NCBI GenBank assembly: GCA_009773515.1
Contig: WSXX01000023.1
Location: 3,971 to 67,970 of the forward strand
Reading direction: 5' to 3'
Length of the DNA stretch: 64,000 nt
Source of the DNA: Bacteroidota bacterium
GTDB taxonomy: Bacteria; Bacteroidota; Bacteroidia; Bacteroidales; Lentimicrobiaceae
In this document: piece by piece, positions 3,759 to 34,258 of the stretch
Numbering within the stretch: position 1 is the first letter of the stretch
Layout: the number at the start of each line of letters is the position of its first letter
Program-made: the position numbers and the translations under genes
Notes under the pieces: generated by a model
Database searches by the model: none
Told to the model about the DNA's origin: nothing
What the model saw: the letters and a program-made list of their open reading frames with translations, nothing else

Positions 3759-4075
3759 GTCCTTCGTTCCGATAGCTATCGGAACCGCTACCAATGACAG
3801 ATTGTTCGTTTTATCTCCTTAATCAGGATTACATTGATTTAAAAAATCAATTGTTTAGTCCTGCGACTCCGCTCAGGATGACATTGTAAATGATTGATTG
3901 TGAATGTATTAAAAATAAACAACGCTAACCTAACACGAATGTCACACTGAGCGAAGTCGAAGTGTTTTGACGCTTGATTTAACTGCCATCTCCGCATTAA
4001 GCTCAATTTTTTTTTGAGTGCAAACTCAGGATGACTGTCAGTCTGAGCGGTTCCGATAGCTATCGGAACGAAGAC
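3759..4075. repeat. Cluster of five REP-like units (BIME-like); two carry the palindrome GTTCCGATAGCTATCGGAAC
   Basis: Units matching TGTCANNCTGAGCGRAGTCGAAG(G/T/A) at 3759-3799(-), 3858-3883(-), 3940-3964(+), 4024-4035(partial -), 4036-4075(+); palindromes at 3766-3785 and 4050-4069. Confidence 0.85.
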
Positions 4076-5951: not shown

Positions 5952-5989
5952 TTCCTTCGTTCCGATGGCCTATCGGAACGAAGTGTTTT
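5952..5989. repeat. Collapsed REP pair: two REP tails joined by a palindrome variant
   Basis: TCCTTCG-TTCCGATGGCCTATCGGAA-CGAAGTGTTTT; 12-bp stem with 5-nt loop; both tails match REP ends elsewhere in the window. Confidence 0.65.
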
Positions 5990-21001: not shown

Positions 21002-21164
21002 AGGCTGCGGATTAGTCTCAGTCAATTCTGAATAACAAACTTACAGGAAATAATTATAATTTACAAGCGGAAAGGGAATATGATTATGTGTTTGACTGAC
21101 AACTTTATAGGAGTGCTATATGAGTCCAATAAATTACTTTCAGAGATAATATAGCAAAATACTA

Positions 21165-21411
21165 TGGCAAGTATTTGAACCTTCAGTTTATATCAAAAAA
21201 AAAGCCCCCTTCTGGGAGCTTTAAGCGGACCGGACGGTCTCGTCAATCAAATAATTGACGAGAGAACCCGTCTCGTCACCAGTGACGAGATGACAGGCAC
21301 GTATTCTAACCTTCAGTTTAGATCAAAAAAAAGCCCCCTTCTGGGAGCTATAGCGGACCGGACGGTCTCGTCAATAAATAATTAACGAGATGACAGGCAC
21401 GTATTCTAACC
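21165..21411 (-). repeat. Tandem tRNA-Asp-derived pseudo-copies with hairpin insertions, each followed by a terminator-like hairpin
   Basis: Copies at 21353-21411 and 21225-21311 share GGTTAGAATACGTGCCTGTCA and CCGTCCGGTCCGC with the tRNA; remnant near 21165-21188. Confidence 0.88.
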
Positions 21412-21675
21412 TAAATCCCCTTTACTTTGAGAAAGGTATGAACTTGCCAGAATTTCAATTGAACGACGATTCAGTTTCTTGAGCCGTTTCTCTTCAATTA
21501 ATGCCTCTCGTTTGGTTTCAAACTCTTTAAGATAAACCAACTTCCAGGGTCCTTTACCAGCCGTATAATGGCTCAACTCATTATTGTGTTCCCACAAACG
21601 ATGTACGGGGTCATTTGAAAAACCCTTATAGTAAACGTCAGAAATTGCAGAATAGATGATGTAAGTATAATACAT
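21406..21675 (-). CDS. Small stand-alone GIY-YIG nuclease
   Basis: YTYIIYS..YYKGFSNDPVHRLWEHN..YT..GPWKLVYLKEF..ALIEEKRLK; ATG at 21675. Confidence 0.85.
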   Translation of the reverse strand: MYYTYIIYSAISDVYYKGFSNDPVHRLWEHNNELSHYTAGKGPWKLVYLKEFETKREALIEEKRLKKLNRRSIEILASSYLSQSKGDLG

Positions 21676-21678
21676 AAT

Positions 21679-21707
21679 AAAAAAACCCCACATAACTGTG
21701 AGGCTTT
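21679..21707 (-). terminator. Terminator-like hairpin between tRNA-Asp and the GIY-YIG ATG
   Basis: AAAGCCTCACAGTTATGTGGGGTTTTTTT on the minus strand. Confidence 0.6.
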
Positions 21708-21710
21708 AAG

Positions 21711-21784
21711 CGGACCGGACGGGACTCGAACCCGCGACCACATGCGTGACAGGCACGTATTCTAACCAACTGAACTACCGATCC
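21711..21784 (-). tRNA. tRNA-Asp(GTC), CCA not encoded
   Basis: GGATCGG/CCGGTCC acceptor stem, D-loop GGTTAGA, anticodon loop CTGTCAC, T-loop TTCGAGT. Confidence 0.95.
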
Positions 21785-21818
21785 ATTTTTTTAAAGAACT
21801 TATTCTCGATTGAGACTG

Positions 21819-21826
21819 CAAATATA
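21819..21826 (-). promoter_or_regulatory. -7 box of the tRNA-Asp promoter
   Basis: TATATTTG on the minus strand; tRNA-Asn has an equivalent TAATTTTG at 51787-51794. Confidence 0.55.
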
Positions 21827-21926
21827 GAGACTTTTTTAAAACAACAAACAATTGATGAAAATTTTTTTTCAGTCGATAGTTTGAGCAGAATTAAGCCGGA
21901 AAGTGCCAGTTAAAAACTGTTACCGG

Positions 21927-34209: not shown

Positions 34210-34258
34210 GTCTTCGACTCCGCTCAGACTGACAGTCATCCTGAGCGGAGTCGAAGGA
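34210..34258. repeat. Inverted REP doublet between convergent genes
   Basis: GTCTTCGACTCCGCTCAGACTGACA+GTCATCCTGAGCGGAGTCGAAGGA. Confidence 0.85.

Follow-up and report, generated by a model that had tools for sequence, protein, structure and literature searches.

A small GIY-YIG nuclease gene and hairpin-interrupted tRNA copies form a cassette lodged behind tRNA-Asp in a Lentimicrobiaceae genome

Directly behind the tRNA-Asp gene of a member of the Lentimicrobiaceae (Bacteroidota; Bacteroidales), we observed an insert that is a tRNA-lodged nuclease-and-hairpin cassette, made up of a terminator, the gene of an 89-aa GIY-YIG nuclease and two partial copies of the tRNA. In the copies, the 3′ side of the anticodon arm and a portion of the T-loop give way to a palindrome with the arms TCTCGTCA..TGACGAGA. 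Across related loci this hairpin tracks the clade of the nuclease and not the host, and it is probably a partner of the enzyme rather than a scar. The cassette lies in a window of 64,000 nucleotides (GenBank assembly GCA_009773515.1, contig WSXX01000023.1, positions 3,971 to 67,970), and coordinates below are window positions unless a contig handle is given. The assembly, which we call G000 (other G, C and L numbers being our handles for genomes, contigs and loci), is 97% complete and comprises 5.03 Mb with 40 tRNA genes, of which tRNA-Asp(GTC) is the sole Asp gene. All cassette features are on the minus strand, and they are listed here with the second tRNA locus of the window that bears on them.

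21826-21819, minus strand: candidate Bacteroidota-type -7 promoter box, by sequence, TATATTTG, 35 nt upstream of the tRNA
21784-21710, minus strand: intact tRNA-Asp(GTC) (ARAGORN; Rfam tRNA, 65 bits)
21707-21682, minus strand: terminator 1, cassette-borne, AAAGCCTCACAGTTATGTGGGGTTTT plus T-tract (terminator scan)
ATG 21675 to TAG 21408-21406, minus strand: 89-aa single-domain GIY-YIG gene (Pfam PF01541, E = 3e-15)
21411-21352, minus strand: partial tRNA-Asp copy 1, consisting of positions 18-37, hairpin TCTCGTTAATTATTTATTGACGAGA and positions 62-76
21349-21325, minus strand: copy of the native tRNA-Asp terminator, AGCTCCCAGAAGGGGGCT plus T-tract (terminator scan site 21349-21332)
21324-21312, minus strand: spacer GATCTAAACTGAA between the copy 1 terminator and copy 2
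21311-21224, minus strand: partial tRNA-Asp copy 2, consisting of positions 18-37, hairpin, positions 50-56, hairpin and positions 62-76
21222-21192, minus strand: native tRNA-Asp terminator and trailer (scan site 21222-21201), running into the flank common to the empty site
21181-21151, minus strand: older relic, a 16-nt D-arm/anticodon-stem copy GGTTCAAATACTTGCC (21181-21166) and an AT-rich hairpin ATAGTATTTTGCTAT
51764-51688, minus strand: tRNA-Asn, a clean empty site

The order of promoter, tRNA-Asp, terminator, GIY-YIG open reading frame (ORF) and two copies, which the first-pass annotation of this DNA had described, is borne out on the minus strand. So is its observation that the ORF ends inside a copied D-loop: the TAG stop at 21408-21406 is the TAG of GGTTAGA (21411-21405), the D-loop of a partial tRNA copy. 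At the other end, the ATG starts 3 nt past the T-tract of terminator 1. We analyzed the cassette by a terminator scan, a repeat search and hairpin folding against shuffled sequences. The scan returned five terminator-like sites where 0.8 were expected, and each partial copy is trailed by the same terminator. Copy 1 is identical to the resident tRNA over positions 18-37 (21/21) and positions 62-76 (14/14), and its hairpin, TCTCGTTAATTATTTATTGACGAGA, spans 25 nt (21390-21366; fold z = -4.2). In copy 2, a 20-nt hairpin, TCTCGTCACTGGTGACGAGA (21290-21271), stands in place of tRNA positions 38-49 and a 26-nt hairpin, TCTCGTCAATTATTTGATTGACGAGA (21263-21238), in place of positions 57-61. The repeat search found the tRNA stretches kept in both copies to be identical to the resident tRNA, and neither copy has the 5′ acceptor strand. 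The cassette hairpins have the common arms TCTCGTCA/TGACGAGA, and their folding is well beyond that of shuffled sequences, with z values from -3.9 to -6.3. An Rfam scan of the locus returned the tRNA alone, with the remaining matches far below threshold. The 485-bp insert contains one ORF, the GIY-YIG gene, and no tyrosine or serine recombinase, in line with the earlier description of a minimal element that has no integrase. The TATATTTG box upstream of tRNA-Asp is also kept in relatives.

The Pfam GIY-YIG domain covers residues 1-71 of the 89 and is the sole Pfam domain of the protein, which has no DNA-binding module. Because the catalytic residues are invariant (Y5, Y16, G18, R26, H30, N31 and E62 in 18 diverse relatives) and the ratio of nonsynonymous to synonymous divergence (dN/dS) of the nuclease between genomes is 0.07-0.12, we conclude that the protein is real and under selection. 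Its orthologues are 79-89 aa long, and its PDB relatives by sequence are the UPF0213 entries 1ZG2 (E = 4e-7) and 1YWL (E = 2e-6). Across 41 relatives, homologues come immediately after genes or pseudo-copies of tRNA-Asp, Asn, Thr, Val, Arg and Met, some of them in arrays of up to seven. We counted this linkage at 66 named public-genome loci, 55 of them evaluable. The first-pass annotation had raised the possibility that homologues are enriched beside tRNAs with partial copies, and they are: a same-strand tRNA lies ≤200 nt upstream in 35 of the 55 loci, and such a tRNA lies on either side in 39, against a chance expectation of ~0.08% (40 tRNAs in 5.03 Mb).

In a tree with two UPF0213 sequences as the outgroup and no SsnA sequence (SsnA being the enzyme of Neisseria meningitidis to which we return below), the tRNA-linked proteins all fall in one clade, with a Shimodaira-Hasegawa-like approximate likelihood ratio test (SH-aLRT) support of 99, apart from non-tRNA paralogues and UPF0213. 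The clade spans Bacteroidota and further phyla, and its subclades follow tRNA identity. The Asp subclade covers Bacteroidales and Flavobacteriales, and splits by order. Transfer across orders is not supported: the Flavobacterium proteins reach the similarity of proteins from one genus, yet the Asp clade divides along the order boundary. Within the genus Lentimicrobium, the Asp-clade nuclease is patchy, being present in 11 of 39 genomes. G000 has two further small GIY-YIG genes (G000:C66:31448-31675 and G000:C15:53621-53845), with 34-35% identity to the cassette protein; they lie away from tRNAs, have no cognate hairpin nearby and group with longer proteins in a clade without tRNA linkage. A member of this longer-protein clade in another genome (G028, L046) has ATTCCTGC..GCAGGAAT dRS3-like hairpins on both sides, a classical Ssn-like layout.

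Other tRNA-linked loci show further arrangements of gene and copy. Two loci (L034 in G025:C3 and L050 in G003:C12) hold arrays of pseudo-tRNA-Val in which the anticodon arm alone is replaced by a hairpin (TTCCGTCTTAAAACGGAA or TCCCGACCTGTAAGTCGGGA). Many of the copies in L034 are full-length, and those in L050 are without the 5′ part of the tRNA. These arrays are interleaved with up to seven GIY-YIG genes, and ARAGORN calls their copies as tRNAs with abnormal anticodon loops. In three Asn cassettes (L033, L037 and L038) and in L032 and L048, the nuclease ORF continues through the copied D-arm into the hairpin. DNA of tRNA origin and DNA of the hairpin thus code for the resulting C terminus (e.g. 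..AQLVRVPKLRD), which is conserved in three genomes.

The hairpin is a second marker of the nuclease clade. Of the 33 Asp-clade loci in the named set, 24 have a hairpin of the TCTCGT..ACGAGA type, with a range that extends from Lentimicrobium to Flavobacterium. None of the 24 loci outside the Asp clade has it; their cassettes, among them the Ala cassettes in Flavobacterium, have hairpins of the TCCCGAT..ATCGGGA type and similar ones. Six Lentimicrobium genomes have orthologous cassettes with the same palindrome straight after tRNA position 37, as does Flavobacterium, and the layout of copy 2 is the same in all of these. The five outer pairs of the hairpin are invariant, pair 7 alternates between C:G and T:A in a compensatory manner, and the center is variable; the palindromes pair to within 2-5 nt of the center. 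The hairpin is present in 11 of 11 genomes that have the Asp-clade nuclease. The first-pass annotation had suggested that the altered copies are either cleavage-immune scars or sources of small RNAs. Against the scar reading, the hairpins are one conserved palindrome that tracks the nuclease clade across orders.

The same hairpin stands at tRNA genes that have no GIY-YIG gene nearby. In G000, tRNA-Arg(CCT) is preceded by two hairpin-interrupted 5′ partial copies (G000:C58:30100-30300) and tRNA-Gly(CCC) by one (G000:C38:59330-59480). In these copies the TCTCGTCA..TGACGAGA hairpin replaces ~10 nt, comprising the 3′ D-stem strand and the 5′ anticodon-stem strand, and relatives carry one to four such Arg/Gly-type units. 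The hairpin pattern occurs in 16 of 39 genus genomes, and a reversed control gave almost no matches. Approximately 32 of the 36 genus sites lie in partial copies of Asp, Gly, Arg or Thr tRNAs, with a copy number of one to four; the residual sites are in a 23S rRNA gene, a group II intron ORF and intergenic repeats. At one of these (L145, G010:C78:818-837), a TCTCGTCATTTATGACGAGA hairpin sits inside an apparent 23S rRNA gene of a related Lentimicrobium, and at another (L149, G046:C65:4844-4863), the same hairpin lies within a group II intron maturase-like ORF and adds an in-frame stop codon. We rejected derivation of the hairpin from the tRNA-Asp anticodon loop (both hold GTCA), since the same hairpin occurs in Arg, Gly and Thr copies. 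The partial copies were also considered as attL/attR remnants, a candidate dropped because tRNA sequence is kept on both sides of the hairpin.

Palindromes of similar type are found elsewhere in G000. The perfect palindromes TTCCGATAGCTATCGGAA, TCCCGATAGCTATCGGGA and TCCCGCACGTGCGGGA, with sites in the window at 3766-3785, 4050-4069 and 5957-5975, replace part of an arm of a repetitive extragenic palindrome (REP)-like unit, an intact example of which lies at 34210-34258. There are ~80 such sites genome-wide, of the TCCCG..CGGGA and TTCCGAT..ATCGGAA types, far from any GIY-YIG gene. These REP-nested palindromes resemble the hairpins of other tRNA-linked clades and the Neisseria dRS3/NTS core, with no partner gene identified in G000. 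A 48-nt palindrome with the ends TCTCGTCAGAAAAG..CTTTTCTGACGAGA (TCTCGTCAG; G000:C25:1595, C30:74596, C58:138 and C66:8) has its outer 9 bases in common with the tRNA-copy hairpin, and it belongs to a multi-copy intergenic repeat mosaic that breaks the assembly at contig ends. We did not adopt a tie between it and the cassette, given its place in a repeat mosaic with no adjoining transposase in the copy examined (G000 C25). Lastly, G000:C15:39400-39700 contains a ~95-nt tandem repeat in non-tRNA intergenic DNA, each unit of which has a TCTCGTC..GACGAGA-like hairpin (e.g. TCTCGTCTGAGGACGAGA).

The nearest relative of G000, judged from the SPFH gene in the flank (95% identity at the protein level), is G013, and its tRNA-Asp site is empty. 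There, tRNA-Asp is followed by a terminator identical to the one behind the partial copies of the window, then by GATATAAACTGAA and a 16-nt remnant, and the relic position reads GGTTTGAATACGTGCC ATAGCATTTTGCTAT. From this layout, the insert is ~485 bp long and lies between the tRNA 3′ end and the native terminator. The single terminator of the empty site has the same sequence as the AGCTCCCAGAAGGGGGCT terminator after copy 1; terminator 1, which takes the place of the native trailer behind the intact tRNA, is not present in it. The intact tRNA is identical in the filled and empty alleles; the trailer alone differs, and the displaced copy is hairpin-interrupted. Because the 16-nt relic and the AT-rich hairpin are common to filled G000 and empty G013, they are older than the insert, and the third remnant that had been assigned to the module is no part of it, since the sister genome has this remnant at its empty site as well. 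The same logic holds for a second filled and empty pair at tRNA-Asp (G023 and G050, respectively), and in G009 just the cassette terminator and ~20 degenerate bases of the ORF start are retained. At tRNA-Asn the two genomes are reversed, with G013 carrying two tandem Asn-type GIY-YIG cassettes followed by the native trailer that it has in common with the window, and G000 having the empty site listed above. Empty sites in close relatives, one of the expectations voiced from the sequence of G000, are thus found at tRNA-Asp and, reciprocally, at tRNA-Asn.

The locus is far from invariant across the genus, where we find filled, empty, tandem and decayed alleles. Host and cassette divergence are discordant in both directions. 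Between G000 and G046, the SPFH gene has a synonymous divergence (dS) of 0.45 at 95% protein identity, and the nuclease is saturated in dS at 69% protein identity; G017 and G011 likewise combine an SPFH dS of 0.81 with a saturated nuclease dS. In the opposite sense, G011 and G007 have an SPFH dS of 0.85 and flanks of 84% nucleotide identity, against a nuclease dS of 0.22 and a gene of 94% nucleotide identity. In G046 the tandem nuclease copies share 81% identity and evolve under relaxed constraint, one of two nuclease copies in G007 is frameshifted, and the tRNA upstream of the cassette in G017 is truncated. The cassette behaves as a dynamic element with a turnover faster than that of the host genome.

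The nearest characterized enzyme is SsnA of N. meningitidis, a 94-aa single-domain GIY-YIG protein of the Ssn family (CDD cd10448) that binds the hairpin repeats (NTS/SRM) flanking its own gene and cuts single-stranded DNA only, just upstream of them (Chenal et al. 2025, PMC11893778). Homologues of the Ssn family have their own hairpin variants, and the authors remark on the insertion-sequence-like layout (PMC11893778). A conserved, clade-specific palindrome agrees with the Ssn model, where the enzyme's recognition site in single-stranded DNA is the hairpin itself (PMC11893778). With this precedent, our favored explanation, to which we would give an even chance, is that hairpin-directed single-strand nicking between direct tRNA repeats drives the amplification, loss and exchange of cassettes; we infer its steps from expression onward. 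The enzyme would be made by read-through from the strong tRNA promoter and, like SsnA, would recognize its own hairpin in single-stranded DNA and nick beside it. A nick between direct tRNA repeats would provoke recombination, and the recombination would amplify, delete and exchange cassettes, hold the partial copies to the sequence of the resident tRNA and, from time to time, seed the hairpin at other tRNA genes. The tRNA, being essential and highly conserved, would provide a promoter, a secure position and homology arms ready for use, so that the cassette would persist as a selfish or half-domesticated passenger.

A bolder proposal, which we consider unlikely though worth stating, is that the nuclease and its palindrome constitute a new, recombinase-free mobile element. 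The enzyme would nick single-stranded DNA at its own hairpin, and host replication or repair would copy the hairpin, either alone or together with the gene, into structured and highly conserved DNA, tRNA genes above all, where the element would survive only if a duplicate keeps the tRNA working. If this were true, one tRNA-Asp nuclease would act in trans on tRNA-Arg, tRNA-Gly, tRNA-Thr and even 23S rDNA.

One competitor is classical homing, in which a double-strand cut in or near a cassette-free tRNA-Asp would be repaired by pasting in the cassette, with the hairpin copies as cleavage-immune remnants of the target. It would account for two tRNA loci at which one and the same site is filled in one sister genome and empty in the other, for the tandem arrays and decayed copies that a homing cycle predicts, for the fidelity of each cassette lineage to one tRNA identity and for the one pair in which cassette dS falls below host dS. 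There is also a precedent in SegB, a free-standing GIY-YIG homing endonuclease in the tRNA cluster of phages T4 and T6 that is linked to preferential inheritance and also to segmental amplification of the tRNA region (PMC2330249, PMC13096335). Known GIY-YIG homing enzymes, however, need a separate DNA-binding domain, whereas the cassette protein has a single domain in 89 aa, and the filled allele retains an intact tRNA, so that the presumed target appears to survive. A cutter specific for tRNA-Asp does not explain why the hairpin is found in tRNA copies of Arg, Gly and Thr type, within 23S rDNA and inside an intron ORF, and the hairpin is a conserved clade-specific sequence rather than a repair scar. 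We therefore regard homing, in which cutting of tRNA-Asp and repair duplicate the tRNA, as improbable and as less likely than hairpin-directed nicking.

A passive origin, in which the gene merely borrows the tRNA promoter and the copies stem from ordinary tandem duplication combined with unrelated palindromes moved by other machinery, also seems to us quite unlikely. The ~80 other palindromes in REP-like repeats, the hairpin-bearing tRNA copies in nuclease-free genomes and the arrays of one genome (G022), which resemble simple tandem duplications, all speak for it. What it fails to anticipate is that hairpin type and nuclease clade change together from order to order, that two cassette clades in one genus have different hairpins, that the hairpin occupies the same tRNA position from Lentimicrobium to Flavobacterium, and that in some clades the ORF reads via the D-arm copy into the hairpin; features with no relation to each other would hardly be so tightly paired. 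Strong purifying selection on the protein, the age of the Asp clade and its broad agreement with host orders, and the possession of its own terminator by each partial copy could instead point to a domesticated function, as could the host-level role of SsnA, which limits transformation in Neisseria (PMC11893778). Here the enzyme and hairpin-tagged tRNA decoys would limit recombination or foreign DNA uptake at tRNA loci, or the tRNA-like transcripts would serve as small RNAs or processing signals. We doubt this too, as the gene is confined to 11 of the 39 genus genomes, with frameshifted and truncated copies, and the partial copies lack the 5′ acceptor strand. Pairing to within 2-5 nt of the palindrome center indicates DNA and not RNA structure, and the copies have no Rfam family match.

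Several observations weigh against hairpin-directed nicking itself. The Asp clade tracks host taxonomy at the order level, and long vertical descent with losses would explain much of its pattern. Five genomes have hairpin copies and no nuclease gene, so arrays can persist, and perhaps expand, without the enzyme. The discordant dS values could reflect differential loss of old tandem paralogues, such as the 81%-identical copies of G046. Precise deletion between tRNA repeats could yield every empty site; because such deletion leaves identical empty sites, gain events are something that we infer. A nuclease, having neither ligase nor recombinase activity, offers no evident means of placing a hairpin at a new site. 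Searches of NCBIfam and PADLOC with the 89-aa protein gave no match. Finally, the published SRM consensus HGTCWYN(0-2)YYVSBRHN(0-5)WNVSBRGN(0-2)RNCYNB is unmatched on either strand of window positions 21101-21850, and it is not enriched in the genome (11 matches, compared with 13 in a shuffle).

There are thousands of small single-domain GIY-YIG nucleases, and they had gone uncharacterized until the description of Ssn in 2025. To our knowledge, only in Neisseria has a biological role been assigned to an Ssn enzyme. The branch of nucleases described here is monophyletic, resides inside tRNA transcription units and tags broken tRNA copies with a clade-specific hairpin. The branch offers a natural and easily assayed setting for the function of enzyme-hairpin pairs, and it bears on the question of whether an enzyme that can only cut can drive gene mobility. 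It also makes sense of many unusual "pseudo-tRNA" arrays seen in Bacteroidota and in members of the candidate phyla radiation (CPR), and matched nuclease-hairpin pairs could broaden the toolbox of sequence-specific single-strand DNA cutters. Tests are practical because cultured carriers exist, such as Flavobacterium enshiense DK69, F. magnesitis and Chryseobacterium ginsenosidimutans.

A literature search on GIY-YIG genes adjacent to tRNA genes turned up no account of such a layout on bacterial chromosomes. The closest known systems each resemble the cassette in part. Integrase-borne islands and prophages likewise keep the tRNA intact and leave a displaced partial copy at the other end of the insert. 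The cassette differs from them in that it has no recombinase, is <0.5 kb long and has a displaced copy with tRNA sequence on both sides of a hairpin and no crossover-point start. The UPF0213/YhbQ proteins (1ZG2 and 1YWL) are the nearest solved structures by sequence and have the same size and fold family, although no tRNA or hairpin linkage is described for them and they fall outside the tRNA-linked clade. The REP/RAYT and IS200/IS605 systems are similar in combining a small enzyme gene with short hairpin repeats that are recognized as single-stranded DNA, spread in the genome and outlast the gene. Their HUH (Y1) transposases, however, cut and rejoin, whereas a GIY-YIG enzyme only cuts, and they have no tRNA linkage; the only gene paired with the cassette hairpin is the GIY-YIG gene, and no HUH transposase accompanies it.

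SegB is the nearest tRNA-linked GIY-YIG enzyme, its gene also being lodged among tRNA genes, and the presence or absence of the cassette at one site among close relatives is reminiscent of SegB-type homing. Unlike the cassette protein, SegB is larger, has a DNA-binding part, cuts both strands and is phage-borne, and it has neither a cognate hairpin nor hairpin-interrupted tRNA copies. With the Ssn enzymes, the cassette has in common a protein of ~90 aa with a single GIY-YIG domain and no separate DNA-binding domain, a clade-specific hairpin beside the gene (here downstream of the ORF) and elsewhere in the genome, a conserved hairpin base with a variable top, and an insertion-sequence-like arrangement of gene and hairpin. 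It differs from them in that its hairpins are embedded in partial tRNA copies and its gene in a tRNA transcription unit, and in that a genome holds a handful of cassette-type hairpins as opposed to hundreds for Ssn; tRNA is nowhere mentioned in the Ssn paper (PMC11893778). On the likeness in size, single domain and hairpin, and with a tree that held no SsnA, we regard the Ssn family as the nearest precedent, to which the tRNA-linked branch appears to be related.

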